A stretch of DNA of 54,500 nucleotides, the filler included, from Jimgerdemannia flammicorona (taxonomy: Eukaryota): the NCBI GenBank assembly GCA_003990765.1. It is 3 parts of 3 records of this genome, joined end to end, with 100 filler letters (N's around TTAATTAATTAA, not from the genome) between each part and the next. Parts side by side here need not be neighbours in the genome. Positions count along the whole stretch, not along the records: positions 1 to 18,102 come from RBNJ01002305.1; 2 more parts are not named here. One strand, 5' to 3'. A model generated the notes under the pieces. It did no database searches. It had not been told where the DNA came from and worked only from the letters and a program-made list of their open reading frames with translations. Positions 5,718 through 36,942 of the stretch are shown one piece after another. The position numbers were made by a program, and so were the translations under genes. Position 1 is the stretch's first letter, and each line of letters starts with the position of its first letter.

Positions 5718-5810
5718 TAATTACCAAAAATATTGTAGAAAGTGTTGTCAGAGTCTTGTGTCACCTGAATGTTACTAGTGGAAGGATGGAGAATTTGATG
5801 TTTGGCTTTG

Positions 5811-8800
5811 AGGAGAGTGGATATGAGTCTCTATCAATATCCACAAAGGAGTACTACCAGACATAGAGAAAGGAGATGAAGTAGACACAGAAGTCTTCAT
5901 ATACTCAGTATACAAGAATAAGAGCAAGATATCTAAGCTCACAGATGAGCAGTGATATAACAAAATTATTAATAACTATGCCCCTCAAGAAAGATGCCTC
6001 TATAGTACTAGGATGTACTGCTCTGAACACCTGAATGACTGCTGGTCCTATATTAGTAAAGTCAGGAAAATCCACTAATAAAAGTATAAGCAAGAAGTTG
6101 CTGAAGTAAAAAGGAAAGCTAAAGAAGATAATCAGCCCCCAGAGCTTTAAGCTAATAGTAATGATGAGGAGGAATAAGAACCAGACATCACTCTCAAGGT
6201 CAACAAGTTTTATCCTGAAGCTAAGATCCCAGAATACAAGACTGAAGGAGCCATAGGAATGAACCTTACTAGCATTCAAGATGCTACCCTCAAACTATAG
6301 ACCACCACTCTACTTGGTACTGAAATTGAAGTCAAGTTGCCAGAGAACTATGTTGGAATCATCAAGACCAGGAGCAGTCTGGCCAAAAGTGAAATCTCAG
6401 TTAAAGGAGGAGTAATTAACTCTGATTACACTGGCAAGATCTTTCTCATAGTTAGGAATCACAATCCCACCACTCCATTTGAAGTCAAGAAGTATGACAG
6501 AATTGGCCAGATGCTGATCCATGAAGTCAAGAAGCCCAAGATCACTGAAGCCATCAAACTCATCAAGATCAAAAGAGAAGAACAAGGCTTTGAATCTACT
6601 GGAAGAGGAGCTTATACTACCACTAAGATTACTGAACTTGAGCATAAGAAAGACAAGAATCAGAACAAGCATACATATATATACCATTGGAGAAAACTTT
6701 CCCCTGGAAGAATAACTTCTCAAGATCCTATATTAGAATAAAGAAGTACTTGCCACAGACTTCAGAGATATCCACAATTAAGAACCCAAATACTACTATG
6801 AAGTTGACACTAGCAATACCAAGCCCATCTACCAGAAAGTCAGATCTATACCACCTGCCTACAGAGAATAGCTATGAGCAGAACTCAAGAAAATAGAAGA
6901 AGCTGAAATTATCAAGCAAGCTATCAGCCCCTGGGCTTTACCTATTGTCCTTGCTCTAAAGAAAGGAAACAAGCCTGGAGAGTTTGCCCTAAGACTCTAT
7001 ATTGATTACAGAAAGCTCAATACATCACTAAGAAGAATAGGCAGCTCTTGCTAAATATTCAAGAAATTCTTACCACCCTTGGAAGTGAAGCCAAATACTA
7101 CACCATCTTAAATCTGTTCTCAGACTTCCATCAGATTGGTCTCACTCAAGATACCAGTGAGAAATCAGCCTTTATTACACCTAATGCCACCTATGTCTAC
7201 CTGTGAATGCCATTTGAAATATGCAATACTCCAGTAAGTTTTCGGTGAATGATGAACAGAGTCTTCAGTAATGAGATTGGAAAATAGCTCTTTGTCTATA
7301 TTGATAATGTGATCATCTTCAGCAATACTGTATGGAAACATGTCAACTATATACAGCTAGCTCTCAAGAAGCTCAAGGAGCATGGCCTCTATATCAAGCC
7401 CAAGAAGTATAAGTTTATAGCTCAGAAAATTGCCTACCTAGGACATCTCATCAACCAAACTGGAATTCACACAGACTCTATGAAGATTGAGACTATTGCA
7501 GCCTACCCAAGACTCAGAATAACTACAGAAGTCCATGTCTTCCTTAGACTGGCCTCCTATTATAGAATATTTATCAAAGGATACTCTAATATTGTAGCAC
7601 CTATCTACAAGCTACTGAAGAAGGAGACTAAATTCAAATAGACCAAGAAATACTAAGAATCTTCAATGAACTCAAGACTAGGTTGACCCAAGTATCCCAT
7701 CCTTAGAAGATCAGATTGGAATCTAAAGTTCATCCTGCAGAGAGATGTAAGTACTATAGGATTTAGAGCAGTCCTAGCTCAGAAGAAAAATGGATATGAA
7801 TATGGCATCTCTTATATAAGCTAAGGTATCCATAGAGTAGAACAGAACTATGAGTCATGCAAGCTTGAATACTTAGCAGTAGTTTAGGCAGTAGATAAGT
7901 TCCACTACTACCTAGCTAGAAAACACTTCACTATTCAAACAGATCATTCTGCTCTCACCTGGCTATTCTACACTCTGAACTCCAAAAGAATATATACTAG
8001 ATAGATCTACAGACTGCAAGAGTATGACTATACTATCAAGTATTACTCAGGAAGAACCAATACCAATGCTGATGTACTCTTAAGGATACTCTGAAACACC
8101 CCCATCAAGACTATTTAACATGAATAAGGAGCTATACTATAAATTAATCAGCTATCTTAGGCAGTGGAAGATACTCAACCACCTTGAACCCTGGACAATC
8201 AATATTATCAACCAGACTTGGAAACAATTTGAACTAGACAACACCACACTCAGAAAAGGAGAAAAGCTCATAATACCTAAATACAAGAAGTATCAAGTAA
8301 TGAAGAAAGTATATAAATAAGGATATCTAGGAGGAACCAACATATATGACAAAGTAAGAAAAACTATGTAGTGGCTCAAGATGGAAGAAGACCTGTGCCA
8401 ATTTATCAAAGAGTGTGATAAGTACCAAAAACAGAAACAAGATCAGTAAGATCAGATATCTAGGTTATCAAGAATTGAGTCTATCTCCTTCCACCACATT
8501 GCAATAGATATTATTAGACTGTTACCAGTAGTACTATCAGGAAACTACTATATTATAGTTATTGTAGACCTCTTTACTAAATGGATAGAAGCAGGAGCAT
8601 TATAAGAAATCAATGCTCTCTCTATAGCTGACTTTCTGTACTGAGAAATCATCTGCCACTACAAGACATCAAAGTAAATTACCACAGACTGCAACACAGA
8701 ATTTATAAATGGATTCTATGAGATAATATATTAGAAATACAAGATTCAGCATATCAAGACCACTGCATACTACTCTCAAGAAAATGAACAGACAGAGAGA

Positions 8801-9455
8801 ACTAATAAGATTCTCAAGAACATTCTGGTAAAGATCTCAGATATACATATATGACAATTGGGATAACTATCTCTCAACTGCCCTCTCTATCCTATAAGAT
8901 ATATAGTCACAGAGTACATACTTTACCTCAAGAGAACTGCTCTTTGGAGAAGAAGATTCTGATAGAACCTCAGCTATAAATCTAGACTTAACTTGAAGAT
9001 GAGTTGACTCAGAAATCCAGAGACTATATCAAATCAGAAAGAAGGCTGAAGATTACATCATCAAGTCACAAGCACTGACAAGAAAGAATGCAGAAAAGAA
9101 TCACAAGACTCTAGAACCCATCCAAATTAGAGAAAAGGTCCTACTGTATCGAAATATGATAGAAGCCTCATGGTCACAAAAACTGGGAAGAACTCTTCTA
9201 CATGTAAGATATCAAGAGAACTATCTTCTGGCTTAGAAAACTCTCAGAGACCATACTATCTACTATGGTATACAGGAACAGACTCAAGAAGTACCATGAA
9301 CCTATATAAGAGAAGCAAAACATAATGACCACCCATGAGGTTCTAGTCCACAAATTATAACAGCATGTCCCATGATCAGCAGGCAATCTGTCTGGACCAT
9401 TCTCTAAGAGATATAGCATCAGCAACTACTCATCTGTGAGACTTTCAAAGCCAGA
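5811..9455 (+). mobile_element. Truncated, degenerate Ty3/Gypsy pol (end of PR, dUTPase, RT, RH, IN), dUTPase family copy A
   Basis: Colinear with the minus-strand element at 9792-17627: VSINIHKGVLPD, TRSSLAK..GGVINSDYTG (dUTPase), VYIDNVII, RNase H NADVL, integrase MNKELYYKLISYL. No LTR seen. Confidence 0.9.
6195..6606 (+). pseudogene. dUTPase domain within Gypsy pol (copy A)
   Basis: dUTPase motifs TRSSLA, GGVINSDYTG, DRIGQ and REEQGFESTG. Confidence 0.88.
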
Positions 9456-9791
9456 GGAGTTTGAACCATCAACTGATTGATCAAGATCAGAATCCATCTT
9501 TTTCTCCAGTAATATTCAGGTTATACAACATTTTGGCAACATTTTCAACACAGTTTCTAGAGAAAAGCTACTAGTATCATTTGGTAGAATCAGCCATCCT
9601 GTCACAACCAGGTGACCCGATATTACAATTAATCGCATCTTTGTCATCAATAGGTAAATCGTCATTCTACATCATTAATAGGGAATGTCCTATTCACCCA
9701 TTCAGAATGCTACTTGATATTAATCAATACTAATTATCCAAGAAGTTGATTTATTAATCACCAAATTAATCAACAGATAACAGGTTGATAG

Positions 9792-10258
9792 TGTAATATA
9801 GCAGATGCTTACTCTTGAAAGTATGTCAGATTTCTGTATCTTGAAAACTTGACTGTTATGACTCTTGCAGAGTCTCTTGAAGTTGTAGGGGAGAGTGGGT
9901 GAGTTCGAAATATATCTGCCTGCAGGCTTACTAGCTCCTTTGCTATCTCTTTGCTTTGAACTATTTCGATCTAAGGTTTATTCACTCTAAGATACTGGGT
10001 TATTTATACAAGTTTACTAGCTATGAGATGGCTACTGAGTTACATGGCTAAGTTATGAGTCATTTAGACAATATCTAGGAATTTAGACAATGTCGAAATG
10101 CTATACTAAATCAGGACATTTGATTTAGACAATGTCTAGAAATTTAGACAATGTCGAAATCGGGGGCTGCTAACTATAAGGCTATACTACTTTGGGAATG
10201 GGTGCGATCAAGTGTCTATTCCCTATTTCCTTCTCCCTAATTCAGCTATACTATCACA
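9792..10258 (-). repeat. 3' LTR of element B
   Basis: Direct repeat of 17162-17627; preceded on the minus strand by the purine tract CAGGAGGAAGT (PPT, ~10259-10270); internal TTTAGACAAT repeats. Confidence 0.95.
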
Positions 10259-10350
10259 ACTTCCTCCTGAATAGATGATCTTGTCTCTGAGGCATCTCAT
10301 TCAAACTCCCAGGCTTCAACTGTCTGTATGATCTTGTACTGTTCAATCTG

Positions 10351-10734
10351 TTATGTGACTGTCTCCCAATGATGTCTCTTTACTTTATTGAAGTCCGTAG
10401 GGGTTACTCCTTGCAGGTGGGCTAGTGCTGATTCATCTTCTTGAAATAACTTGTGGATCCTCTTGGCGATGGTGATCTGTGAGTAAGAGAGTTGACACTC
10501 TGTGATCCAGTCTTCTTTGGTCTTCGCTGGATCCTGGTTGAGTACCTGTCCAAGTTTGAAGTACTCTTGGAATTCGTTTCGATGCTGATAGGCCTTGAAG
10601 TGTGAGATTCGAGAGAGATGAATCTGCATGATACTTTGGATACTATCATAAGACTCCTCTATGATCGGAGGCTCAGTGGTGCACCATTGTCTCTCGATGG
10701 CTCTTTGGGTAGTGCTAGTGATCTTGAGTGCCAT
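10351..10734 (-). CDS. ORF3, accessory protein of unknown function between integrase and 3' LTR
   Basis: ATG 13 nt after the integrase stop; 127 aa open. The frame continues past a TAA (probably a former CAA) almost to the PPT. Confidence 0.7.
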   Translation of the reverse strand: MALKITSTTQRAIERQWCTTEPPIIEESYDSIQSIMQIHLSRISHFKAYQHRNEFQEYFKLGQVLNQDPAKTKEDWITECQLSYSQITIAKRIHKLFQEDESALAHLQGVTPTDFNKVKRHHWETVT

Positions 10735-12042
10735 CGTGGTACTTTTGTTACTGGCTATGATATTTCTTGAGTCAGTTTCGGTGAATAGTAGTGGGGATTA
10801 TTGTGCCTGAGGGTTTTCGTAACCAAAAGGTGGTCCCTTTTATATCTTGCACCAGGTAAGGTCCTTCCCACTTGGGCTCCAGTTTTCATGACCATGAAGC
10901 TTCTACCATGTTCCAATACACTAGGACTTTATCTCCTATCTTGATAATCTCCAAGGGTTTGTGGGTCTTTTCCATATTTCTCTGTTGTAGTGTCTGTACC
11001 TTGGTTATGTAATCCTCAGCCTTCTTCCTGATTTGGTGTAGTCTCCATATTTCCATGTCCACATGTTTCCATACAGCATCTCCATTGGATGATAGGATTC
11101 CCTGAGAACATTCTTCTCTAAATAGTATTTCTTGAGGGGTAAAGTGAGTACTTTGTGATCGGATATCCTGGAGAGCAGATAATGCTATTGGCAGATAGTG
11201 ATCCCAGTTCTTGTAGTTATTGCAGATCTTGGCAATAATGTTCTTGAGGGTTTTGTTGGTCCTTTCTACTTGTCCATTTCCTTGAGGGTAATATGCTGTG
11301 GTCTGAATATGCTGGATCTTGTACTTCTTGTAGAGAACTTCGAAGAACTGGTTTATGAATTCTGTTCCTCTATCTGTAGTTACTTGTGTTGGGGTCTTGA
11401 ACTGGTAGATGATTTCTTTGTAAAAGAAATCGGCGATTGATGGTGCATTGGCTTCCATAAGGGGTCCTGCTTCTATCCATTTTGTAAAAAGGTCTACAAT
11501 GATGATGATGTATTGGTTGTCAGTCAAAGTCAAGAGTAGGGGTCTGATTACATCCATTGTAATGTGGGTGAATGGTACTGGTTCTATGTGTGCTGATCCT
11601 GGGGCTTGATTTCATTGGTCTTGTTTCTGTTTCTGGCATTTGTCGCAGGTCTTGATGAATTGTCTGATATCTTCCTCTATCTCTGGCCACCATATTGTTC
11701 TTCTTGCCTTGTCATATGTATTCATTCCTCCTAGATGGCCAAGTTCATGTACTGATTTCATTGCTTGCTCCTTCTTGTGTTCTGGTATGACTAGTAGTTT
11801 TCCTTTCTTCAGTATTTCTCCATCAGTTTCGAATTGTTTCCATGTTCTGTTGATAATCATTTGTATCCATTCTTCCAGATGTTGGGGCATCTTTTGCTGT
11901 CCCAGGTATGTGATGATTCTATAGTAGAGCTCTTTATTCATAATTGCTTTGTTGGTTGGAGGTAGTTCGAGGTGTCTATGAGAGAGCATCTGCATTGGAA
12001 TTTGTTATTCCAGGGTGGTGTATGATGGTTACATCATAGGCT

Positions 12043-13146
12043 CTACCTCGGGTTGGTTTGCTGTGCCTGCAGGGGCATGGTGGGAGGAGGGCAATGGTGA
12101 TGAGTTGCCCCTTTATTGGTGTCAGATCGGTGCTTCCTCCACTTTTTCGTGGATTCTGGTGCCTTCAGCTGCATCTGGGGTGTACCCGTTTTGGTGCAGC
12201 ACCTTCTTCCTTTTGCCGTCGCCAACAAGGAGTTGTCTCGGTATGTCTCAGGCTACGTAGGGAGTCGGCCGACCTTGGGCATCAAGTGCTCAGTATAGGT
12301 TACCTGCAGGTCCTCGGTGCCTGTGATGGGGCTCTCTGGCTTTGGCGAGCTTCCCGGTGAGTGCGGTTCTGGTATAGGTGACTGCTTTTTGGGTGTTGTC
12401 GGGATGGGAGGAGAGATGGCCATCACAGATAGGCGGAAGGGCGATTACGGTGAACCAGTAGGGTGCCAGGCTGGGGGCGGTCGTCGGGGCTGGGGCAGGT
12501 GCTGCTTCGGTGGGGCCTTTTGATTGGTGCGGTACGGTTAGGTAGTAGGTGTCACTCTCGGCTTCTTTTGGCGGGTAGCGGGGTGGGGCCCCAGTCGTCA
12601 GGGGGGGTCGGGGGGCCTGAGGCTACCCATTTCAGGCATCTTGGCTGCACTTAACTGGAACCGGGAGCTGACATGGCAATGTGATCGAGGCCCGCAGGCT
12701 TGAGTAGTGGGGTATTGGGGGTTTCCTCCCACCTCACATATAAGTCCTTTACTCACCTCGACTGGGAGAACCAGGCCCTACCCACCATGTTGTGCTTTGA
12801 TGAGGGTTTTTTCTTTACCTATCATTCTCTTTGGGGTGGCAGGGGCTATTCTATTTGGCTCAGACGTGGCCTTGTACATACGTTGGGTTCTCAGGCATGC
12901 GCTTTCGGTCGTTGGCATATGGTTGGGTTTCCTCTGGTAGTAGGGAGAGCATGGTGCACAGAATGAGGTGCAGGCTTATCAGCCCTGCTGTGCCTGGCAT
13001 GGTCGAGCTACTGGACAATAGCTAGCCTAGGTTAATGGGGGGGCAGTGCTTGGTGGGTGGTGGGGGAGGGTTTTGGCCTATATAGTCTAGGTTCCCTTCC
13101 AATAAAAATCTGTGAGACATGAGTCCGTTAAACAAAAAAAAAAAAA
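12043..13146 (+). mobile_element. 5'-truncated non-LTR retrotransposon (family LINE-B, copy 1) inserted in RNase H of element B
   Basis: 17-bp TSD TGGTTACATCATAGGCT (12026-12042 and 13147-13163), AATAAA and a poly(A) tail. Removing it restores MKLQAYDVTIIHHPG..NADALS. Confidence 0.92.
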
Positions 13147-14575
13147 TGGTTACATCATAGGCTTGTAACTTCATTATCTATCTAGCATAGATTCCTTTGG
13201 GTTGTCCGGTTGTCAGTAGCCAGGTGAGAGCTGAGTAGTCCATCTGGATGGTGAAGTGTCTTCTAGCCAAGTAGTAGTAGAACTTTTCTATGGCCCAGAT
13301 GACTGCAAGGCATTCCAACTTGTAGGATTCATATTCTTTTTCAGCTCCTCAGGTTCCATGGCTAAGATATGCAATGATATACTCTTTTTTGTCTTCTTTT
13401 TAAGCTAGGACTGCTCCTAGTCCTTGTGCACTTGCATCCATCTAAAGGATAAATTCTTGGGTCCAATTGGGTCATCTGAGGATAGGTGCCTGGGTCAGTC
13501 TGACCTTGAGTTCATCAAATGCTTTCTGTTGTCTGCCAGTCCACTGGAACTTGGTATCCTTCTTATTGAGTTTATAGATCAGACCTGTGATGTTGGAGAA
13601 TCCTCTAATAAATCTGCAATAGTAGGAGGTAAGTTCCATGAAGGCTTGAGCTTCTGTGACGGTGGTGGGCCTTGGGTATGCTACTACTGCTTGTATCTTG
13701 AGGGGGTCTATGTGTATCCCATCTTGATTGATAATATGGCCAAGATAGGAGATCTCGATTTCTGCAAACTTGCACTTCTTGGGTTTGATATAAAGGCTGT
13801 GTTGTCTTAGTCTCTCCATTATCTGCTGTATGTGCTGCAGATGTTCCTCAGGTGTCTTGCTGTAGATGATTACATCATCGATATAGACCATTATCTATCT
13901 TCCCATGTCATAGTGGAAGATTTTGTTTATCATTCGCTGAAAGCTTGCTGGTGTATTGCACATTCCAAATGGCATTCGTAGGTAGATGTAGGTTCCATCT
14001 GGAGTAATGAAGGCTGACTTTTCACTTGCCGTATCTGTGAGTCCGATTTGGTGGAATCCTGAGTAAAAGTCCAAAGTGCTGTAGTACTGTACTTCGTCTC
14101 TCAGTATTATAAGGATATCACTGATGAGCGGCAGTGGTTGGCAATCCTTCTTGGTAACTGTATTGAGCTTTCTGTAGTTGACACAGAGCCTTGGGGCAAA
14201 TTCTCCAGGTTTGCTTCCTTTTTTCAGGGCTAGTACAACTGGTGAAGACCAGGGGCTGCTGGCTTCTTTGATGATGCCAGCTTCTTCCATCTGCTTGATT
14301 TCTTCTCTGAGCCATTCTCGGTAGGCTGGCAGGACAGGTCTTGCCTTCTGATAAATTGGTTTGGTGTCTCCAGTATCTACCTCGTAATAGTAGTGTGGGG
14401 TCTTTCCCTTGATATCCTTGAAATCTGTGGTAAGGACATCCTCGAATTTGTGGAGTATTTTCTTGAGTTCCTCCTTGAGTGGGAATTCATCTCCAATGAT
14501 GTAGCTGTGCTTGCTCATGTTTTCCTCCTTCTTATGCTCGAGTTTGGTGATCTTGGTACTGGTGAATACTCCTCT

Positions 14576-14992
14576 TCCTGTGGATCTGAATCCTTTCTTT
14601 CCTCTTTTCATTTCCTCCAGATTCTTGACTTCTATGATTCTTGGCTGTATGATTGGGAAGATCAAAATCTGTGCCAATCGGTCCTTCTTCTTGACTGGGA
14701 ATGAAATTGTAGGATTGTGATTTCTAGCAATGAGTAGAATTTCTCCAGTATAGTCTGAATCAATGACTCCTTCTTCGATTGTGATTTCGCTTCTAGCCAG
14801 GCTGCTTCTTGTCTTGAGAATCCTGACATAATCCTTTGGGATAGTCATCTCTAGTCCAGTTGCGAGTAGGGTGGTTGTCTGGGGTTCGAGTACAGTTTCT
14901 TCTACTGTAGTGATGTCCATTCCGGCTGTGTTTTCTGACTTGTATTCTGGCAAGACTGCATCAGGGTGGATCTTTTGAATCTTGACCTTGAT
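14576..14992 (-). CDS. dUTPase domain between protease and RT (element B)
   Basis: Motifs AGMDI, TRSSLA, GVIDSDYTG, DRLAQ and RGKKGFRSTG, in frame with RT in ORF 13895-15271. Confidence 0.93.
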
Positions 14993-15799
14993 TTCTTCTT
15001 CATCATCACTGTCTTCCAGGAGGGCTGGTGGTTCATCGTCTTCCTCCTTCTCTTCTTCTCCGATCTGTTTTTTGAGAGCTTTCTGCCTTCTTTCCAGGTA
15101 GATCTTCTTGGTTCCAATGGTGCACTGGTAGCAATCATTGACATGCTCTATATAGTATATCTTGATTTTATGAGGACAGACTCCTTGTGGGACATAGCCT
15201 TCTGCGATCTTCTTGCACCATTCTTCTTCACTCATCCATCCAACTTTCTTCTTCTTTGGAATAGTCACCATATAAGCTTCTTATTGCTCACTCTCTTCTT
15301 TCTCCATATCGGGCAGGACTCCTTTGTTGACATTGATGGGAATTCGTATCTTCTGTCCTTGGTAGGTGATCTGCATCTTCTGAGCATTGAGATCGATTAC
15401 CGCCTTGGCTTTGTGAAGCCATTGATTGCCGATGAGGATGTCATAGTTGGTGGCATTAGTTATGATTACATCTACTGGGATGGTTGCTCCTCCAATCTTG
15501 ATGAGAACATCCCAGATCTTTCCCAGAGGTGTGGCTCTTGTGCCATCGGCTGTGACAAACACCAGCTTAGTTGCTTCTTCCACATCCCAACCTAGGTGGT
15601 CCACTGCCTTCTTACTAAGGAGACATCCTCCTGCTCCTGTATCAATGATGGCTTCAAAGATTCTATTCTCGATTTGGCATGTTGCATAAGCAGAGATTTT
15701 GCAATTATCCTCACTTTCTTCTCCTGAGTCCTCTTGAATGTTATTGGCCTCAGTTATCTTCCATCCTTGTTTCTTAGTTATTTCAGCAAGTCCAAACCT

Positions 15800-17047
15800 C
15801 ATTTGCTGTCTGAATGTTGGAATTTCTGTGAGCTGACCAAAGGTTGCATTGACCTTTTGTTGACTGAGGTCCTTGAAGATGTCATACTTGAAGGTCTTGG
15901 TCTTGCAAAGCTTCTTTTCTTTTTCTCCTTCACTGGCTGGAGTGGTTCCTCAGATGATATCTTGAACTGCTTGCTCCAGCTCAATATCTTGGTCCATCTC
16001 TTCGGCTTGGCTTTCTGTGGCAGTTTCCATCCACTTTTCCACTGGGTTCTTCTTGGGTCTTCCTGGCAGTCTCTTGTAGGGTTCTTTGCGAGCATCCTTC
16101 TTGGTGGTCTGAGCAGGATAGGCCTCCCATTCCTCTTCATTAGAATCTCCAATTTCTTCAAAGGTGATTGTATTAGCCTGCTCCTTGTTTCGTGTGGCAT
16201 TGCTTGGTTGAGCCTTGTATTTGGTTTCACTCATACATTCATAAGAGTAGTGGCCTTCTTCTCCGCAGCTATAGCAGGTATCTTTCTTCTTGTCTGAGGT
16301 GGTGGCAAACTTCTGAACAGGGTGGCAGTCTCTTCCTCGGATTTTCTTTACCACATCTCCCAGGTGGGCAGTCATTTCAGCAAACCTTTTGGCAAGTTCT
16401 TCCATAGGGTCACTGTTCTTTTGCTGCTCTGTAGCTTTTGGTTGGGGTGTGTTTCAATTAATTATTGTGGTGGGGATCATACTGGTTGCCTTGAGTATCT
16501 CAATTCTGACTCCTGTAACTCTCTCCATTATATAGTCTTGTGGGTGTCTGGCTATCCAGTATCGCTGGGCATAGGTGACCTTCTGTGGCAGATCCAGAAT
16601 CACTGGTGATGAGTGGATAGCCATGGCTATTTCTGGGTGGACTCCTTTCATGAAGGTTGCTTCAGCTACTTGATCTTGGATAGCGACAGCATAATCTGCA
16701 AGGATTATCTAATATCAAATTCTGGTATAGAATGTGTTTGGATCCTCGCTTATTCCTTGGCATGTTGTATTGAGCTGGTCCTTCAGGGCTTGCTTGATCT
16801 TGTCTGTATAATATGTATTTCGGAGCCAGGTCTTCTGTGCTATCAGTATAGCATCGGCATCATTTCCTACATGGGTTGCAGCTGTGAATACTGCTCTGAC
16901 AGGACCTCATAGGCTGAATGGCATGAGGGCTACTTGCTGTACTGCTGTCAGAGTCCTTACAGCAGTATACTACTCGAAATTATCAATGAAGGTGATGATT
17001 GATTCATCTGAGGTATATTCATGGAATACTGGTGGTCTCATATCCAT
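15800..17047 (-). pseudogene. Gypsy gag with CCHC zinc knuckle
   Basis: MDMRPPVFHEY start after the PBS; CYSCGEEGHYSYEC knuckle at ~16230-16275. Confidence 0.85.
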
Positions 17048-17140
17048 CTTGTCTGGGTATTGGAGCTCGGTTTGTATGGTTGTTCAGGTAGTGGTAGTTG
17101 TTCGTTGTTCAGCTTGAAAGTGAGGGATTTGTCTTGAATT

Positions 17141-17158
17141 ACCAGCCAATGGGCACCA
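17141..17158 (-). promoter_or_regulatory. Primer-binding-site-like sequence (TGGTGCCCATTGGCTGGT)
   Basis: Starts with TGG 3 nt inside the 5' LTR boundary; cognate tRNA not identified. Confidence 0.7.
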
Positions 17159-17161
17159 AGT

Positions 17162-17627
17162 TGTAATGTAGCAGATGCTTACTTTTGAAAGTATGTCAGA
17201 TTTCTGTATCTTGAAAACTTGACCATTCTGACTCTCGCAGAGTCTCTTGAAGTTGTAGGGGAGAGTGGGTGAGTTTGAAGTGTATCTGCCACAGGCTTAC
17301 TAGTTCCTTTGCTATCTCTTTACTTTGAACTATTTCAATCTGAGGTTTATTCACTCTAAGATACTAGATTATTTATACAAGTTTACTAGCTATGAGATGA
17401 CTACTAAGTTACACGACTAAATTATGAGTCATTTAGACAATGTCTAGGAATTTAGACAATGTCAAAATGCTATACTAAATCAGGACATTCGATTTAGACA
17501 ATGTCTAGAAATTTAGACAATGTCAAAATCATAGGCTGCTAACTATAAGACTATACTACTTTGGGAATGGGTGTGATCAAGTGTCTATTCCCTATTTCCT
17601 TCTCCCTAATTCAGCTATACCGTCACA
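17162..17627 (-). repeat. 5' LTR of element B
   Basis: Direct repeat of 9792-10258 with TG...CA ends. Confidence 0.95.
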
Positions 17628-17720
17628 ATAGTAAAGTTGGGAAATCATTTATCCTCATATCCCAACATTAATAAATAATTAAATGTTTTTCATCCTACTT
17701 AAGGCAAATAAAATCCTTTC

Positions 17721-18102
17721 CTAGGCCGCCCCGATCTCAGTAACAAGCAACTTTACCACCTTGACGTGCCCGTTCTGATCAGCAAGGTTAAGCGCCGTCA
17801 ATCCTTGGTTGTTTGTGGCGTTGAGGTCCGCCCCGAACTCGGCCACGAGCAACCTCACGACCTCCACGTGCCCTTTCTGCGCACTCATATGAAGCGGTGT
17901 CCAATTATTCTCTTCTCTGGCGTTGGCATCCGCCCCGAACTCGGCGACGAGCAATCTTACGACCTCGACTTGCCCATTCAGCGCAGCTTGGTGAAGCGGC
18001 ATCCGCCCATCGTTTTTCTTGGCGTTGACGTCAGCCCCGAACACGGACACAAGTAACCTCACGGCTTCGATGTGTCCGTTCTGCGCAGCGACGTGAAGCG
18101 GT
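17721..18102 (-). CDS. C-terminal part of an ankyrin-repeat protein (5' part lost in gap)
   Basis: Four 34-aa repeats PLH.AA.NGH.EVVRLLV.EFGAD.NA; the frame is open up to the gap and CpG-rich. Confidence 0.92.
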
Positions 18103-18202
18103 NNNNNNNNNNNNNNNNNNNNNNNNNNNNNNNNNNNNNNNNNNNNTTAATTAATTAANNNNNNNNNNNNNNNNNNNNNNNNNNNNNNNNNNNNNNNNNN
18201 NN
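18103..18202. other. Assembly gap spacer
   Basis: 100-nt N run with central TTAATTAATTAA (stops in all six frames); identical spacer at 36304-36403. Confidence 0.97.
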
Positions 18203-20059: not shown

Positions 20060-22408
20060 ATGTCTAAAGATCAAGAAGTACATTTAGGAGAAATCTCAGA
20101 ACTGTTGGATGATATATCGGAGGATATATCGGAGGATATATCAGATATCTCCACCAGTTCATTATCACCAACGAGTACGAGAATAAAAATAAAAACAAAA
20201 CCTGGTGATAGCTGGGTGTGGAATCATATCACAAAGGTAGTTTTATACATTGTGCTAATGGTTGAATTCATAGGGGTGATTGATCTCAGTTATAAGGGTA
20301 GGTTGTAAGTGGTTGAGGTTCTAATATAGTTTCATATCTCTCTATTCAAATAGAATTTACAAAGTAAGCTCATCAGTTGCAACCATTGCATGACTTGGAG
20401 CTATATATCAAAGGATGGCAATATCAACAATCTTAAATGACATCTCTGGAAGCATCACAATGCCATGCTCTTACCTCTCCAGCATGCTGAGAATCCTCGC
20501 TGGTCTAAGAAAGATGATATTGTGAGTATGGATAGAATGGAATTCGGGAAGTACTTAGGAGGTTATTAGAAAAATAATTGATCAAATTTTATTATTACAA
20601 ATAGGAACACACTAGCAAGACTTTAAGTGATGAAAATTTTCATCGGTTAATTGTCAACTTCATTGTCACTGGATATCAGCCATTCTCCACTATTGAAAAT
20701 GCTGGCTTCAAGTATCTCCTTCACATATTATGCCCTGATCTGGCCCTTCCATCAGCTGATACGATTTCACGAGTTATTCGAAAGGAATTCGAACTATTGC
20801 AGACTCAAGTGAAAGTAAGGCTAGCAGGGCTCAAGTCAAAGGTGTCACTTACACTTGATTGTTGGATATCGGATGTTAACATCAAGGCTTTTCTTAGAAT
20901 AACAGCCCATTGAATTGACAGTGATTGGAAGATACATGACATTATTTTAGACTTTGTGAATATCAGCGAAATAACACACACGAGTGCCAATCTTGCGAAA
21001 AGTCTAGAGCTGGTAATAGATGATTTATTGCCTAGTGACAATCAAATCATTGCTGTTGTGTGTGACAATGCTAGTAACAATGATACTCTGTTTGAGAATC
21101 TCCATTATCCACTTGCTCATGTACGCTGTTTCGGGCATGTGTTGAATCTCATCATTCATGATGCTCTTGGTTCTCTTAGCGAGCCCATTGGAAAGCTACA
21201 GAAGTTGATAAAGAAGATCAAAAATTCAGCGCAACGACAAGCACAACTGGCGAAGGTCTGTGAATCCTCCGGAATTCCCATTTTGAAGCCTCTCTTAGAT
21301 GTTACGACGAGATGGAGTTCTACACATGAAATGTTAGCACGTGCTCTGGAGATTCGTAAGGTAAGATTTTGAATCTATTTGTATAGATTTTGGAATACAA
21401 TTCAGAAGTATTTTGGTACTAAATAAATTGATATTACATTCAAATAGGGCTTGGATATATTGTGTGCTATGGATAAGCAAATGAGCGATATATCTGAAGA
21501 TGCATGTCAACAATTTGAATTGATTTGCCGATTTCTCGAGCCTTTTGCCAAAGTGACAACTGTGATGTCAGCTTCAAAGTATCCTACAATAGTGGCTGTT
21601 ATCCCACTATTTAATTGGCCATGTGATCACCTTGAAGATGTCATCGATACATATCAAACTGGTGAACATTTTAATCAGGTATATATATGATTTTGAAAGT
21701 AATTTTATTTGTGAATTTAGGAACTAATTTAGTAAGTAATTGGGAAGTAATATGTGTATATTTTTATTTTTTATAGATAATGCTTACCGCTGCTGAGAAT
21801 GCACATATGAAACTTCTAAAGTATTACTGCAAGATGACACCATTATACAGCATAGCTTCGGCCTTAGATCCACATATCAATATACGTTATTTCCATTGTA
21901 AGCAATGGAAAAAATCCTTAATTGATGAATGGAAGAATCAGATGGAACGTATCTGGGAAAAGGAGTGTAAGCCTGTTAATGCTGTCATTATACCTTCAAT
22001 ATCTCATGATGCCGATGATTTTATCAACTCAATATATAAGAAGAAACAGCATATCGATGTAGATGATGAGCTTGAATGGTGGGTGTTGTTTTTATGTTTT
22101 TTGATTGGCTTAGTTAATTTTCACTCATATTTCTCTGTTTCAGTTATTTGTCAGAGAATCCAGCTGATTCTCATATAGATATACTGGATTGGTGGCGGTG
22201 AAATCAGTTGGTATATCCTAATCTTTCACGAATGGCTCGCGATTATCTGGCTATTTCGGCGACATCTGTTCCATCTGAATGTATTTTTTCTATTGCTGGT
22301 GAGCTAGTGACTAAACGTTGAAACAGCTTGTGTGTAAATACAATTTGTGTATGCATGTATTTGGATTCTTGGTGGTCTTCAGATATTTTTCACTTTCAAT
22401 TACTCTGA
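20060..22408 (+). pseudogene. hAT-superfamily transposase (BED finger, DDE, hATC dimerisation domain), 5 introns, several stops
   Basis: SWVWNH..CNHC..NLK*HLWKHH (BED); TLDCW, CDNASN, RCFGHVLNL, TRWSSTHEML; WW..YPNLSRMARDYLAISATSVPSECIFS. GT-AG introns at ~20237-20353, 20522-20603, 21361-21447, 21679-21776 and 22079-22143. Confidence 0.93.
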
Positions 22409-22454: not shown

Positions 22455-22820
22455 GAGGGTCGGGTTCAGGGTCGGGTTCAGGGGTCGGGTTCAGGGTCGG
22501 GTTCAGGGGTCGGGTTCAGGTTTGGGTTAAGGGTAAATAACGGGTCAGGTGACATACATTTCCAGGTCGGGTTAAAGATGGGTAATATATCTTTCCAGGT
22601 CGAGTTAAAGATGGGTGATGTACAATTCTGGGTTGGGTTAAAGACAGGTGACATATTATTCTGGGTCGGGTTAAAGACGGGTGACATATAATTCCGGGTC
22701 AGGTTAAAGATGGGTGACGTATAATTCCGAGTTAGGTTAAAGATGGGTGACATCTAATTCTGGGTTGGCTGTTTTACGGGTCGGGTTTTGGGTTAATCGG
22801 GTTGGGTTTGCGGAGCACTA
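22455..22820 (+). repeat. hAT right subterminal repeats and TIR
   Basis: (GGGTCGGGTTCA)n, ~30-bp GGGTCGGGTTAAAGATGGGTGAC units, and the end CGGAGCACTA (reverse complement TAGTGCTCCG), followed immediately by chromovirus integrase sequence. Confidence 0.85.
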
Positions 22821-23618
22821 CTCTCTTGGAATGACCCCATTCTTTGCCAACACTAGACAAAATTCAAACACCCCTTTGACACTTATCTGAACTACTGAAG
22901 AACCCTCCACAGTCAAAGCCATTGAAGAATTCTTACTCTGAATGCGCAATTTAAGCCAGATTGCCATTGAGAATTTATCGCGAGCTCAAGAACAATAATC
23001 ACAGTATGTTAACCAACACTGCTGAGAAGAAACTTTTGATATTGGAGAAAAAGTCCTACTGGACATCAGAGGATACCGAGTTGACAACCTCAAGCACAGA
23101 CTATCTACAAAGCTGAACAGCAAGTTCATTGGACTATTCGAAGTCATTGCACAAGTCTCTCCAACCTCCTATAAATTGGCACTACCAGACACTATTAAGA
23201 TTCACCCAGTCTTTAATGTTCAATGTCTCAAGTAATACAATGAGAATAATAATGAACTATTCCCAAACTGGACCACCAAACCACCTGTACCTATCATTAT
23301 TAATGACCAAGAGAAGTACGAAGTTGAGCAGATCCTCAATAAATATGGCAACAAGAACTACCCTGAGTACCTTGTCAAATAGAAAGGTTACCCGATCCAT
23401 GATGCAATCTGGGAACCCAAGACCAATCTCCAGAATGCTACTGACCTAGTTCAGGAATATAATTCCTTAAACAACTAGAACCAAATACTCTACATCTATC
23501 TATACATACTATATACTATCCTCCTGAATATTATAATTATTGCAAACCAAACCAAGAACTCAGCAGAACAAAATTAAAAGGCCCCGACGAGGATGTCGAA
23601 AGCTAAGAAGGGGAGAGT

Positions 23619-25650
23619 TGTAAGCATACAACCTCCAAGCCACCGAAATTATATATGACCTCTGAACAAATCTGGAAATCACCTGCTTGATCATGAAGCT
23701 GAGTCAAACCGAAGTCACAGCGCACAAAGCTGAGTCAATATGAAGTCACAGAACACAAGATTTACACAAACAGAATCTTATCAATCAGGATCAAATATAT
23801 ATATACTGAGCACTGAGATGCGTCAAATCAGAGAACCAAAATAAAACAATAACCACAACTTCAAAATATACAAACATGACCACTGAGATCTATAACTATA
23901 TCCATGCTGACATTTGGAATGCCATTGTCAACCAAGCTACACCCCCTCTGCCCCTCATGAATATCCATAGCCTGGCACTCCTCTACTTTGTGGAAGCCTG
24001 ATGGAATGCCCTGAACATGCTTAGCGAGACCCACCAAATTGGACAAATCTCAAGCTACTACCAGATCAGCCACCTCCTGGAAGACATGGTTGAACACCAC
24101 CATGATACAGACATTACTCAGATGTCTCAACACCAGAAGCTCATCACCTACAAACATCGAGAACTCTTCTATGAGTACAGTACCATTATTTCCTGCCTCT
24201 GAGTTACTACCAGCAAAATGATTGCTACTCTGTCCTATAGCTGAATCGATGATATGATATAAGAACTCAACCACAAGTACCTTGAGTACGTCGAAACCAC
24301 AGACAGAACCTTCCCACACCCCAATGATCAAATCCTGCAAATGCCCCAAGTTGGATATGCCATGAAGGACATCTACAATATAATCCACTTTGATAAAGAT
24401 GAAGCAGAAGACAATGATCCCTCTGACACTGACATGATCTCTAGCTAAGGATCTCTGCCAACCCTGATCACTCCGCCAATCTTGCCGATGAACTTACAAC
24501 AGTTCATAACAGCATATGAGACTTATTGAGACAATGACCACTGGCATGAATACCAACCTGCATTCACTCCCGATTACTTCAACTACAATAAAGAGACTGA
24601 AGAATACAACCTGTACCTCCAGACAACCCTTGAGATCGAACCAACCACTCCACCACCAGAGTACGAGTGACATGAACCACAGCTACCAGCATACTACAAC
24701 CTTACAACTCACAGTGCCGTAACCTATAGAAGGTATGCAGACAGCGAATCCAATGAAAGTGAAGATGATGCACCACTCCTTCATCCACCAACACCTTATC
24801 CAGCATATGAGACAGATGATGCTATCTTGTGGGATAGAGATGAAGTTCCAATGTATTATTACCTCAGCGAACAAGGAGAAGTAATCTGCAAACTATTATT
24901 TCTAGATGACTACTTCATCAGAGATGATGCAATCGATGGTGATATCATTGAGGACTACCCAGACAGCACCTAAACCCATAAATAGCCTAGCAGTCATAGT
25001 ATAGTTAGATTAGTCTTGTACAATGTGACTGTGAACTGACTCAGCAGTCAGACGATCTCTTGACATGTTAGATCACACTTGTACTATATGACTGCATTCT
25101 GACTCAGCAAGGCACTTAGTGCTACATCCATATCTAGTATAGTCCAGATAGCCCCTCACTAGTATAAATACCCCCTCCCCCAGACCTCAGAATCTCAGAC
25201 TCGAACACCCAAGAACATTCCTGAATACTTCTCCACAATACCCCTTCATATAACTACTCCTAGTATAGCAATATCATGAATAGCAAATAAACCTATTCCA
25301 TAACCCACAAACCACTCTTAAGTAAATCCACTCCTTGTTAGGTCCTACTCCTAACCTTGTCACGAAATTTCCTAATTGGGTATTGTCTGTAGCGATACAC
25401 CAATTCAACTAAGCTGGCCTTAGTTTCTTGAACTTCCTGAAATACGGAAAATCCTGAATATCCAGAACTAGTCCGAAAAAAGGACTTTGGTTGAGACGTC
25501 AACCCAATCTTGAAATCAATAAGCATAGAGGACACACTCCATATGAAATTAATCTTGACCATAAGAAAACGGTCTTCCAGAACATCCAGAATATCTAAAA
25601 AATCTTTCCAGAACTACATAATGGTTACCCTAAAAAGTAACCCTCTTATA
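23619..25650 (+). repeat. ~2.03-kb LTR of chromovirus family
   Basis: Starts right after the PPT; homologous to 37377-39442 (ends CTCTTACA and is followed by a PBS-like site) and to 36404-36942. Confidence 0.85.
23876..24973 (+). pseudogene. 365-codon ORF inside the LTR (unknown protein, acidic Pro/Tyr-rich C-half)
   Basis: Single frame from ATG 23876 to TAA 24973, broken only by point stops; the homologue is open in the young copy (36654 to gap). Confidence 0.75.
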
Positions 25651-28600
25651 ATTTTGGTGGCTTGGAGATTGTATGCTTACAACTCTTCCCTTCTTAGCTT
25701 TTGACATCTTCATCAGAGGTCTTTTAATTTTGGTCTAGTATTATTATACTATTTAGATGGTCAAAAGTCTGATAAGGTCCATTTTTTTCAGAAAGTGGTA
25801 TGCTCATAGTATAGTTATCTAATGCATTAGATTTATATATTAAAGGGTCATATATTCAATGCTATGTATTGGAAGTAATTCTGATATCATTTACTGCTAG
25901 AGAATTTCCTCTAAGGAATCTTCTTAAATATCTATACCTCATTTTCATCAGTGATATAGGAAGAATAAGCTGGCTTTCAGTTTTGCTATTTTTCTAGAGA
26001 ATCAGTATTTTGTCTTGACTTGCTGAGTTCTTGATTTTGTTTATGATAATTATAAGGATACTTGATGTTCAGAAGGGGTAATATATAGTATGATAGATAC
26101 TGGGGTACTTAGGTTTTCAGTTGTTCAAAGAATCATATTTCTGAACTAAGTTAGTAGTATTCTAAAGATTGGTTTTAGGTTCTCATGTCATGTTATAGAT
26201 TGAGTAACCTTTCTATTTGACAAGGTATTCTGGATAGTTCTTGTGGCCATATTTGTTGAGAATTTGTTCAACTTTATATTCTTCTTAGTTATTAATAATA
26301 ACAGGTATAAGTGGTTTTGCAGTTTGGTTCAGAAATAGCTCATCATCATTTTTATTATATTACTTGAGATGAAGACTGGGTGAATCTTAATAATATCTGG
26401 TAGTACTAATTTGTAAGAAGTTAGAGAAACTTGTATAATAACTTCAAATGGTCCAATAAATTTACTATTCAGTATTGTAGATAGTATATACTTAAAGTTG
26501 TTAACTCAGTATTCTCAAATATCTAATAGAACTTTTTCTCTAATGTCAAAAGTTTCCTCTTAGTAGTACTGGTTAATATACTGTAACTATTGTTCTTGAG
26601 CTCATAATAAATTCTTGATAGTAATCTGACTTAAGTTGTATATTTAGAGTAGGAATTCTTCAATAGCTTTGACTATAGAGAGTTCATCAGTAGTTCAGAT
26701 AAGTGTTAGAGGGGTGTTTTGGTTTTGTCCTATATTGATGAAGAATGGAGTCATTCTAAGAGAGGTTTGCTTGCTATTATTATAGATAAACTTGACTGCA
26801 GTAAGATATTCATGCCAATTATCTTATCTATAGAAAATATAGTTCCTTAGTATTTGCTCCAGTGTTCAGTTTATTCTTTCAGTTTAGCCATCAGTTTTAG
26901 GATGAAAGGCTGTGGATAGTGCAAATTTCATTTCAAGGTATATATGGAGGACTTTCCAAAAATAGCTGGTAAATTTTAGGTCTCAATTATTACCAATGAT
27001 CTTAGGAAAACCATGATAGCAGAAGATGTTATCAAATAAGAGTGTGGCTATGTCTAGTACTATTACAGTAGTAATAATTGATATAAAGGAGGCTTATTTG
27101 CTGAGATGGTCTATAAAGACAACAATTACATCTTTTCTGTTCTTAGTTCAGAGTAGTTGTATAATAAAGTCTATAGAAATTTATTCCCAATTAGCAGATA
27201 GTACTGAGATGGGGTAGAGTAGGCTAGGTTTTACTAATATTGAGAACTTGTTATATTGGCAGATATCATAGGAAGTGATATAGGTCTTTAGCTGATCTGC
27301 TATATAGGGTCAATAGAAGTTTCAGAAAATAACTTCATAGTATTTATCAAATTCTAAATGTTCAGCTATAGGGGTGTTATGACATTCAAATAGAATAGTC
27401 CTTCAGAGGTCTTAGTTGTTTGGAATATACAGTCTATCCTTGTAGTAGATAGCATTATCCTTCAGTTAGTATTGATGATACTGAATGTACTTATCAGTAT
27501 CATTACTACTTAGGATTTCTTAGAGTACTTGAGCTTCTTTATCATCAGTATATACTATAATAATTTATTCCATAATAGAGTTGATAACCAAGGTGAGAGT
27601 TTGGATAACTTCTTTGATTGGTGATCTGGAGATTGTATCAGCAACAATATTTTTCTTGTCAGGACAATACTGAATTTTATAGTCAAAGTTGATAAAAACT
27701 TTTATCTATTTGGCTTACTTTTGGAAAAAGATAGCCTAGGTCTTGATATTGACTAATGATTTGTGACCAGTTAATAGGATAAAGTATACTCCTTCTAAGT
27801 ATGGTCACTATTTGATCAGAGTGTCTACAATAGCTAACATTTCCTTCTCATATATTATATAGTTGATTTTAGTATTATTGAATTTATAGGAGTAGTAGGC
27901 CATAGGGTATCCTTCTTATATGAGCACTATTCCAAGAGCTAGATCAGAGTTATCAATAGTAACTTTATATAGTATAGTTAGGTTTGCTGCTTAAAGTACT
28001 GGAGTGATTATCAAGATATTCTTCAATATTTGAAAGGCTATATCTTATTTGGGTCCTCAATTTACAAGATTGTTGAAGTCTTTCTCTTATTTCATAGTCT
28101 AAGGCTGTTCTTCTTTCTTGCTATACTTGGTCATTTGAGTAAAGGCAGTAGCAATCTTAGCAAAGTTTGTAATAAATTATTGATAATAGTTTTCTAATCT
28201 CAGGAATGACTGAAGGTCTTTTAGCTTCTTGGGTCTGAGCTAATCCTTGATTGTGGAGATTTTGCTGGAGTCTACTTTGATTCTATTCAACATGATAATA
28301 TATCTAAGAAATTGAATTTCTTTTAAGAAAAATTCACATTTGTTGAGTTTTGCAAAGAGTTGGTTTTCTTGGAGTTTCAGTAGTATTAGTTCAAGATGTT
28401 CAAGATATTCCTCCAGGGTTTTGCTGAAGACTAGGATGTTGTCAATATAGATAATAACAAATTTGTCTAGATATAGGTATAAGATAGTATTCATCAGTGT
28501 CTGGAAGGTTGCAGGAGTATTAGTTAAATCAAAAGGCATAACCAGAAACTCAAAATGTCCATAGAGAGTTTAGAAGACTATCTTATAGATGTCTTTTTTT

Positions 28601-28660
28601 TTTTATAGCAATTTGTCAGTAACTATTTTACAGATCAAAAGAGCTCATAAATTGTCTATT
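25651..28660 (-). mobile_element. Heavily mutated chromovirus copy D (RT, RH, IN, chromodomain, PPT, 31-bp LTR stub)
   Basis: MPFDLTNTPATFQ..IYIDNILVFS; chromodomain ~26130-26290; PPT ~25682-25697; LTR start TGTAAGCATACAATCTCC at 25681. Confidence 0.88.
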
Positions 28661-36303: not shown

Positions 36304-36403
36304 NNNNNNNNNNNNNNNNNNNNNNNNNNNNNNNNNNNNNNNNNNNNTTAATTAATTAANNNNNNNNNNNNNNNNNNNNNNNNNNNNNNNNNNNNNNNNN
36401 NNN
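36304..36403. other. Assembly gap spacer
   Basis: N run with TTAATTAATTAA. Confidence 0.97.
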
Positions 36404-36942
36404 GACATCTGGGTAATGTCTGTATCATGGTGGTGTTCGACCATGTCTTCCAGGAGGCGGCCGATCTGGTAGTAGCTTGAGATTTGTCCGATTCGGTGGG
36501 CCTCGCTAAGCATGTTCAGGGCATTCCATCGGGCTTCCACAAAGTAGAGGGGTGCCAGGCTATGGATATTCATGAGGGGCAGAGGGGGTGTGGCTTGGTT
36601 GACAATGGTATTCCAAATGTCAGCGCGGATGCGGTTGTAGATCTCAGTGGTCATGTTTGTATGTTTGGAAGTTGTGGTTGTTGTTTGTTTTGGTTCTCTG
36701 ACTTGACGCGTCTCGGTGCTCAGTATATATGCATTTGGTCCTGATTGGTAAGGTTCCGTTTATGTAGATCTTGTGTTCCGTGACTTCGTATTGACTCAGC
36801 TTTGTGCGTTGTGACTTCGGTTTGACTCAGCTTCATGATCAAGCAGGTGATTTCCAGATTTGTTCGGAGCTCGCGTGTGATTTCAGTGGCTTGTTCAGAG
36901 GGTGACGTATAATTTCGGTGGCTTAGAGGTTGTGCGCTTACA
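36404..36942 (-). mobile_element. Young chromovirus LTR (copy E) with intact start of the LTR-ORF
   Basis: Begins TGTAAGCGCACAACC at 36942 with no PPT before it (5' or solo LTR); CpGs intact; ORF MTTEIYNRIRADIWN... open from 36654 into the gap. Confidence 0.88.

Follow-up and report, generated by a model that had tools for sequence, protein, structure and literature searches.

Open reading frame 3 (ORF3) is the third gene of a dUTPase-bearing Ty3/gypsy retrotransposon found in a 54,500-nucleotide stretch of Jimgerdemannia flammicorona DNA (assembly GCA_003990765.1; three parts joined by filler, called here the window). The best overall explanation, with a probability of about 0.7, is that this gene encodes a soluble, all-helical, non-envelope protein of ~153 amino acids belonging to a superfamily that includes a second ORF of the window, carried inside the long terminal repeat (LTR) of a chromovirus and named LTR-ORF. 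ORF3 is a genuine, conserved third gene under purifying selection. LTR-ORF is probably homologous to it, and sequence comparisons support that ORF3, a family of proteins represented by P0015, and LTR-ORF would be at least three branches of one unnamed superfamily. The homology would follow from a transitive chain linking the ORF3 family to the P0015 family, the P0015-family protein P0018 to the intact LTR-ORF protein P0013, and P0018 to the LTR-ORF copies of the window.

ORF3 comes last among the genes of a complete minus-strand element (copy B, 9792-17628), which is bounded on both sides by ATAG (9788-9791 and 17629-17632). Its 3' LTR (9792-10259, minus) is 93% identical to its 5' LTR (17162-17628, minus). 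Between the LTRs, Pfam matches identify a gag zinc knuckle (zf-CCHC), protease, dUTPase, reverse transcriptase (RT), integrase zinc domain and integrase core (10886-16453, minus), and a 1.07-kb insertion at 12041-13110 breaks pol between RT/RNase H and integrase. On the minus strand the ORF3 frame has no stop between 10797 and a TAA at 10351-10353. As originally delimited (10351-10734, minus), it counts 127 codons from the ATG of the window copy (10732-10734) to this TAA, which is premature and stands where relatives have Q or T. The ancestral full extent, aligned with P0003 and with positions 5795-6256 of the metagenome contig L001, is 10297-10758 (minus), that is 153 codons followed by a TGA (10297-10299). 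The family start codon reads ATA in the window (10756-10758), the ATG having been lost. Beyond the premature TAA the frame runs on as QIEQYKIIQTVEAWEFE, matching the intact relatives, up to the TGA. The polypurine tract CAGGAGGAAG (10260-10269, minus) lies between the ORF3 stop and the 3' LTR, and the same motif is found 3' of ORF3 in L001.

A search of 5.8 billion proteins retrieved ten ORF3 relatives at 66-82% identity, which show that the full protein has 153 residues. L001, the one locus found by a metagenome scan with the ORF3 alignment, is an independent contig that holds a near-intact element of the same kind, with an intact 153-residue ORF3 directly behind gag, protease, dUTPase, RT, RNase H and integrase (Pfam). 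Its ORF3 ATG is in an ACCATGG context 44 nt ahead of the pol stop, and its stop is ~35 nt upstream of the polypurine tract and LTR. The ratio of non-synonymous to synonymous substitution rates (dN/dS) between the window and L001 ORF3 is 0.08 (NG86) or 0.17 (YN00) over 165 codons. It equals that of pol in the same pair (integrase 0.11, dUTPase-RT 0.11); ORF3 is thus constrained like pol. The runs matching the 6.9-kb element are seven, with no RNA run among them; its holders are soil-metagenome DNA contigs (word shares 0.06-0.18).

Unlike copy B and L001, a diverged second dUTPase Ty3/gypsy element of the window has no ORF3. This copy A (6349-9297, plus) is ~70% identical to copy B, is full of stops, and is directly adjoined by copy B with its ATAG duplication. 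It loses homology to copy B where ORF3 would begin, and 9298-9791 is unrelated to ORF3. The truncated third version of the module that the original prediction placed in copy A at 9323-9455 is absent: nucleotide homology to copy B ends near 9297, and none of the 22 family proteins gives a tblastn match better than E 0.16 in 9100-9800, where there is no profile match either.

The second branch emerged from a comparison of the ORF3-family profile to 1,835,955,588 representative proteins, which gave four matches, a single one of them distant (P0015, E 9e-4). The P0015 family consists of 11 proteins, recorded on contigs that reach 7.8 kb. Its alignment with the ORF3 family by hhalign has a probability of 97.1% (E 5.4e-11, 108 columns), and its profile recovers the window ORF3 with 35.1 bits (E 3.6e-12). 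Both branches share an N-terminal helix, an E-P-P-x-I-E-E linker, the motifs E-F-Q-x-Y-x-x-G and T-I-A-x-R-x-Y-x-L-F, and an acidic C-terminal tail containing W or F (EAWEFE in one, EGEYPPFIDFG...ELDEWDL in the other).

The chromovirus that carries LTR-ORF is represented by the end of its pol (23026-23478, plus), with the integrase SH3 domain at 23026-23232 (Pfam SH3_Tf2-1, E 4e-16), a chromodomain read in translation at 23317-23460 and the pol stop at 23476-23478. Directly after the polypurine tract (23598-23617) begins, with TGTAAGCATACAACC, an LTR of ~2.0 kb (23619-25640, plus; right end approximate) that opens with TGTAAGC. Position 23619 is identified as the LTR boundary because the same start recurs at 37377 (plus) and 25681 (minus), both behind pol, and at 36942 (minus) without pol upstream; two LTR copies can be aligned over ~2.0 kb. 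LTR-ORF begins 257 nt into the LTR, in sense orientation. Copy 1 (23876-24262, plus) has 128 codons and a TAA, with internal TGAs at codons 42, 109 and 123. Copy 2 (36404-36654, minus) is stop-free over its first 83 codons, the remainder being N. Copy 3 (37642-38028, plus) has the same 128 codons and terminal TAA, with four internal stops, in an LTR hypermutated by C>T and G>A changes. P0013, an intact database protein of 128 residues, is 94% identical to the 83 unmasked residues of copy 2 and was the sole LTR-ORF relative found among the 5.8 billion proteins; a metagenome scan with the LTR-ORF alignment gave no match.

LTR-ORF copies 1 and 3 differ at ~27% of positions, yet their alignment is free of indels over 23914-24489; 15 of the 16 other ~96-nt windows of the LTR alignment contain 19 gap events. 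Differences between the two copies number 38, 16 and 38 at the first, second and third codon positions, a pattern that by itself does not settle the strand, and dN/dS in the sense frame is 0.26-0.35. Hypermutation accounts for a large part of these differences (within the ORF 41 C>T and 26 G>A, or 67 of 92). Note that outside the ORF such changes make up 226 of the 351 differences between the LTR copy at 37377-39430 and that at 23619-25640, and that all ORF stops of the former fit them (RIP-like, i.e. resembling repeat-induced point mutation, or deamination). At ten listed ORF sites the majority of contigs from four public runs disagree with the window. Seven of the eight non-synonymous differences restore the residue of P0013, which identifies the intact LTR-ORF as the common form.

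The decisive result for the probable homology of LTR-ORF to ORF3 is the BLASTP comparison, made with compositional adjustment, of P0013 to P0018 (32.7 bits, E 3e-7, 76 residues), in the register that the original prediction had proposed by eye. Smith-Waterman alignments of P0013 with P0018, P0017, P0019, P0015 and P0003 share one register and have z scores of 11.6, 8.1, 7.5, 5.8 and 5.3; their scores are reached by 0, 0, 0, 1 and 1 of 3000 shuffles, respectively. Comparison of P0013 to all 22 proteins gives E 5.7e-6 for P0018, 1e-3 for P0019, 0.017 for P0003 and 0.076 for the window ORF3. The alignments are colinear over the full length (6-128 versus 6-131 for P0013 and P0019, and 1-128 versus 1-131), and the damaged window copies 1 and 3 match P0018 by BLASTP with E 4.2e-5 and 1.9e-5.

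Profile searches point in the same direction. The merged ORF3 and P0015 profile scores P0013 at 19.1 bits, a value that none of 20,000 shuffles reaches (maximum 16.7). The P0015-family profile alone gives 14.9 bits across the full length (2 of 20,000 shuffles) and the ORF3 profile 8.2 bits (22 of 20,000). The reversed sequence of P0013 scores 0.7 bits. When the window was scanned in six frames, LTR-ORF was the sole match beyond ORF3 itself (7.2 bits, E 0.0013), a score reached by none of 40 local shuffles (maximum 2.4) nor by the reversed sequence (-0.6). Reciprocally, the LTR-ORF profile recovers P0018 at 18.9 bits. Column permutation of the hhalign comparisons reached the real value in 0 of 120 trials in each of two tests.

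The three branches align end to end by MAFFT (14 sequences). L104 and F105 are invariant and P31, which follows the first helix, is nearly so. LTR-ORF displays the signature columns of the other branches, namely L-F after an I-A-x-[RK] helix, Y-[YF]-x-[LIM]-G, and the P after the first helix. The G of the signature is present in P0013 and copy 2 and is S in copies 1 and 3, the majority letter of the public runs restoring G in copy 1; E-F-Q of the ORF3 and P0015 branches is replaced by I-S-S. The peptides on which the original prediction was built are all present in the window, at 10534-10584 and 10402-10512 (minus) for ORF3, 24104-24199 (plus) and 36445-36498 (minus) for LTR-ORF, and 9417-9455 (plus) for copy A. 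Its central proposal, an unnamed, helical, non-env module shared by the two ORFs, is upheld through the transitive chain and in its own register, which the intact relatives keep; the direct pair of window sequences on which it relied does not carry it. In the shared pattern drawn by eye, Y-[YF]-x-[LIM]-G and L-F hold; HR is not family-wide, being absent from the P0015 branch. The PP seen upstream in both ORFs is indeed found after the first helix, with its second P nearly invariant over the 14 sequences.

The similarity also runs beyond the end of LTR-ORF. The TAA at codon 129 is common to copies 1 and 3, which differ at ~27% of positions, and to P0013; together with the codons behind it, it occupies 24260-24448 and 38026-38214 in the two copies. 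In copy 1 an in-frame continuation of 62 codons follows (24263-24448, plus), which can still be aligned to the C-terminal region of P0015-family proteins and closes with an acidic stretch. When copies 1 and 3 are aligned to P0018 or to the profiles, the match extends in frame past the TAA, the score of copy 1 rising from 11.2 to 16.6 bits. The 62 codons show 27, 6 and 23 differences at the three codon positions and a dN/dS of 0.19. The stop is in the context TAA-G. Either a master chromovirus copy gained a nonsense codon shortly before it spread, or the stop is leaky.

The proteins have no segment that would place them in a membrane. Averaged over 19 residues, Kyte-Doolittle hydropathy peaks at 0.89 among the 22 ORF3-superfamily proteins, at 0.57 in P0013, and at 1.14 and 1.38 in the two stop-bearing window copies of LTR-ORF. 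The combination of a signal peptide and at least one transmembrane segment, which defines an env, is thus lacking in the ORF3 superfamily, as had been predicted; likewise, no hydrophobic segment and no Pfam match at E up to 10 relates the module to Sag-type type II membrane glycoproteins. Isoelectric points (pI) span 4.6-9.6 over 23 proteins (the 22 and P0013). The ORF3 branch, with pI 5.5-9.2, is close to neutral and the P0015 branch acidic (pI 4.6-4.9 in 10 of 11 members), and neither has a conserved basic nucleic-acid-binding patch. With no membrane segment and a neutral to acidic character, the protein is therefore neither an env nor an obvious nucleic-acid binder.

AlphaFold models of ORF3 and LTR-ORF are all-helical and soluble-looking. 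The mean predicted local distance difference test score (pLDDT) is 67 for ORF3, with means of 71-88 in blocks of ten residues over residues 31-110, and 60 for LTR-ORF. Under the alignment the predicted order is the same in both: helix, PP loop, helix, helix, long helix, C-terminal helix. The module has no name in the libraries searched, since these contain no Pfam family, no solved sequence relative and no clear fold for it, which agrees with the original expectation that the domain is not a described family. The window ORF3 matches no Pfam family, P0003, P0019, P0013 and P0026 match none at E up to 10, and P0015 at the same limit matches TBK1_ULD alone (15.4 bits, for a cut-off of 31). By sequence, no solved relative of ORF3 was found in the PDB (best E 0.26), and a Foldseek search of the PDB gave no clear fold match (best E 2.2). 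VIA-align (wide) returned as best a Z of 4.6 for the ORF3 model (root-mean-square deviation 4.2, 76 aligned) and of 7.3 for the LTR-ORF model (5.5, 99 aligned), both within the range common for helical models. In the ESM Atlas, P0003 met unrelated 'hypothetical' clusters (at most 173 shared features) and P0019 no usable match. Three scans of viral contigs, made with the three alignments, found no relative.

Several results weigh against the homology of the two ORFs or the working state of LTR-ORF. The direct pair of window sequences scores 41 in a different register, with a z of 2.4, and 59 of 2000 shuffles reach that score. The ORF3 member P0026 has a z of 2.4 to P0013, five of the six members tested being significant. 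The reciprocal LTR-ORF profile is uneven, with -1.4 bits for P0015 and -1.1 bits for P0016. Comparison of profiles by hhalign, which is strong between ORF3 and P0015, is weak for the shallow LTR-ORF alignment: 0.6% (P 0.094) in a wrong register with the ORF3 family, 3.3% (P 0.013, 125 colinear columns) with the P0015 family, and 8.6% (P 0.0039) with the merged families in the expected register; one column permutation came to 22.9, for a real value of 23.7. The strongest link is to one subgroup (P0017/P0018) and comes in part from a shared HHH-TD-x-x-x-MS in a loop that is variable elsewhere. A single element family supplies the four sequences of the LTR-ORF alignment, stops interrupt each of the three window copies, and the exact antisense frame is itself almost free of stops (one in copy 1). 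Finally, the models are of middling confidence (pLDDT 67 and 60) and have no fold-search match in common.

That the likeness of ORF3 and LTR-ORF arose by chance, or by convergence of small helical ORFs of similar composition, is improbable. The weak direct pair and the low hhalign probabilities (0.6-8.6%) would fit such an origin, as would the modest score of the ORF3 profile on P0013 and the silence of the reciprocal profile on P0015 and P0016, and empirical P-values may be optimistic because residue shuffles lose helical periodicity. Composition is, however, already adjusted for in the BLASTP value of 3e-7; five of six members give z scores of 5.3-11.6 in one register; the alignments are colinear over the full length and continue across a stop codon in two diverged copies; and in the six-frame scan LTR-ORF is the sole non-self match; the reversed sequence scores 0.7 bits. 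An origin of ORF3 itself as a degenerate partial duplicate of the element's own RT (motif B through thumb and tether, with the catalytic hairpin lost) is less probable still. It is suggested by hhalign, which aligns the 22-sequence profile colinearly to RT residues 983-1116 of the L001 polyprotein (P 0.036) and the P0015 family to a three-sequence RT alignment (P 0.026), and by resemblances seen by eye at motif B (ASYQRMLQS/ASFQRMMNS), motif E (KLGQILNQ/YLGHIINQ) and the tether (TIASRVYLLFRD/HIASPIYDLFRK). The probabilities of these matches are, however, 0.6-1.9% (P 0.026-0.097), HMMER gives 0.1-1.4 bits for full sequences and no domain above -1.5 bits, Pfam searches up to E 10 return no RVT_1, the ORF3 family on its own matches only 14 columns, and the predicted fold is all-helical.

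A different doubt bears on the state of LTR-ORF, which might be homologous but a non-working relic of a former ORF3, lying inside the LTR or shortened by the TAA of codon 129, with P0013, a Joint Genome Institute (JGI) model, being a gene-caller's reading of it. This is unlikely, though of all four alternatives the one to be taken most seriously. Internal stops in three of three window copies, the single relative among 5.8 billion proteins, a codon-129 TAA in copies 1 and 3 and P0013 that removes the part aligned with the acidic tail, and a dN/dS of 0.26-0.35 that denotes weaker constraint than in ORF3 are what a relic would leave. It would hardly have kept the indel-free stretch amid an LTR rich in gaps, nor a second codon position that changes far less than the others (16 versus 38 and 38). 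P0013 is intact over 128 codons, its residues are those restored in seven of eight non-synonymous run differences, and the internal TGAs of copy 1 sit where it has R, R and Q. It is very unlikely that the coding strand of the LTR is the antisense one (open at 24053-24493, minus), with LTR-ORF as its shadow. There the antisense frame has one stop in 204 codons of copy 1 versus five sense stops over the same span, and first and third sense positions change equally. Against this, dN/dS is lower in sense in both comparisons that included the antisense frame (0.35 versus 0.42; 0.31 versus 0.73), the sense protein matches an independent, selected family, the antisense ORF has no Pfam match, a frame that mirrors a coding frame codon for codon is often open, and the sense stops result from C>T changes in hypermutated copies. 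A conserved, soluble third gene with a probable counterpart in the chromovirus LTR is the preferred reading.

If this reading is correct, expression of the module would call for a route of its own, since the gene is at the 3' end in both elements, on either side of the polypurine tract. ORF3 might be made from a subgenomic or spliced RNA, from an internal or LTR promoter, or by re-initiation at the overlap with pol, and both genes would be carried on the 3' part of the element RNA, provided that transcripts run through that part of the LTR. For the same reason the two positions are less different than they look, and than the original contrast of an env position and an LTR position implied, both ORFs being sense and 3'-terminal; that two different lineages carry the module stands. 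Within the cell the protein may serve the element as regulator or adaptor, its folded helical core binding an element component and its disordered acidic, W/F-containing tail (EAWEFE; ELDEWDL) recruiting a host factor. An acidic tail with bulky hydrophobic residues is the type of motif that activation domains and export signals use. The single best guess would be a role resembling that of a transactivator or an export adaptor, a tentative guess that leaves the greater share to be divided among histone or chromatin adaptor, Gag or integrase chaperone, and anti-silencing roles. It is conceivable, though rather doubtful, that the superfamily moved between Ty3/gypsy lineages and between positions (internal ORF3, LTR) as a counterpart of the 3' regulatory genes of complex retroviruses, with readthrough of the TAA yielding a longer protein that has the acidic tail beside a shorter one that lacks it.

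The usual description of LTR retrotransposons stops at gag and pol; the extra genes known are mainly env-like ORFs or unexplained additional ORFs (aORFs) of plants. Here, a selected non-env accessory protein of no known family is found in two unrelated Ty3/gypsy lineages of one genome, once inside the LTR, an arrangement so far associated with retroviruses such as mouse mammary tumour virus (MMTV). The novelty lies in the protein family itself, in its occurrence in two Ty3/gypsy lineages and in its placement within an LTR outside the retroviruses. The protein is a candidate for element-encoded regulation, be it of transcription, RNA export, chromatin or defence against silencing. The chromovirus family is abundant in soil metagenome data, and the seed alignment allows a family profile to be built for genes that gene callers now label 'hypothetical protein'.

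Other features of the window were recorded alongside these elements. The region 22821-26764 is a fold-back in which the integrase end, polypurine tract and 2-kb LTR (plus) are followed by an inverted LTR start (25681, minus), polypurine tract and integrase end; its arms are ~78% identical, and the right end of the LTR may carry an inverted repeat of its own start. Thousands of short contigs from runs X1, X2, X3 and X5 (3746 in X1) match window 22800-25700 at 80-100% identity; they come from soil metagenome runs and from one other organism's runs. Window copy 2 has a 39-nt insertion after 23649 that recurs in X2 and X5. Runs of 44 N each occupy 18103-18146, 18159-18202, 36304-36347 and 36360-36403, the second pair hiding the C-terminal third of LTR-ORF copy 2. 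The 1.07-kb sequence inserted in copy B is a repeat with three copies (12041-13110, 28656-29700, 35207-36277; 79-85% identical) that ends with AATAAA, plus an A-run in the 12041-13110 copy, and it resembles a non-LTR retroposon. Just outside the 5' LTR of copy B is a tandem repeat (17723-18101) with a period of ~100 bp and 72.6% identity between neighbouring copies. The weak Pfam matches of an ORF at 20914-21369, to DUF659 (E 0.0023) and to DXP_synthase_N (E 1.5e-4), lie close to the threshold or under it; the ORF may be the remnant of a hAT-like transposase, presuming that DUF659 is linked to hAT elements.

In the literature no description was found of this protein or of an ORF inside a fungal or non-retroviral LTR, works on ORFs within LTRs being dominated by MMTV sag; comparable 'add. 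ORFs' may be present in the figures or supplements of PMC2864245. Additional ORFs that lie in sense between pol and the 3' LTR form a known class (aORF-3S), as set out by Vicient and Casacuberta (2020, PMC7264820). ORF3 belongs to it by position, for both copy B and L001 have it behind integrase and before the polypurine tract, and shares with it the character of a conserved, family-wide sense ORF of unknown role. The plant cases in that account are mostly env-like or antisense; ORF3, in contrast, has no membrane segment or Pfam family and has a relative inside the LTR of another lineage. Fungal Gypsy elements with an 'add. ORF' of unknown function and with dUTPase are drawn in Figure 3 of Novikova et al. 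(2010, PMC2864245).

The complex retroviruses offer analogies of position and size. Tat, Rev, Tax/Rex and Tas appear among their accessory factors in the same account (PMC7264820), and like ORF3 they are small, non-structural and encoded 3' of pol. This likeness is an analogy and not a homology, and the neutral to acidic ORF3 and P0015 branches, devoid of a conserved basic patch, are to be set against it. For an ORF inside an LTR the example is MMTV sag, as reported in PMC2118998. LTR-ORF resembles sag, nef and bel/bet in being a sense ORF in the LTR that would be read from the 3' part of the RNA, and accessory rather than structural. The nef gene of human immunodeficiency virus (HIV) and bel/bet of foamy viruses overlap U3; LTR-ORF is located at 257 nt into its LTR. 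MMTV Sag is a membrane glycoprotein, whereas LTR-ORF lacks a hydrophobic segment and any relation to it in sequence or fold, and its host is not a vertebrate. The sharing of ORF3 types among unrelated retroelements has a precedent in bdelloid rotifers (Rodriguez, Kenefick and Arkhipova 2017, PMC5408684). The rotifer ORF3s described there are GDSL esterases, DEDDy exonucleases or env-like proteins, whereas the present module matches nothing known and has one copy in an LTR. The two systems have in common that the same type of accessory ORF recurs across lineages, some of them with dUTPase, a pattern of modular gene sharing.

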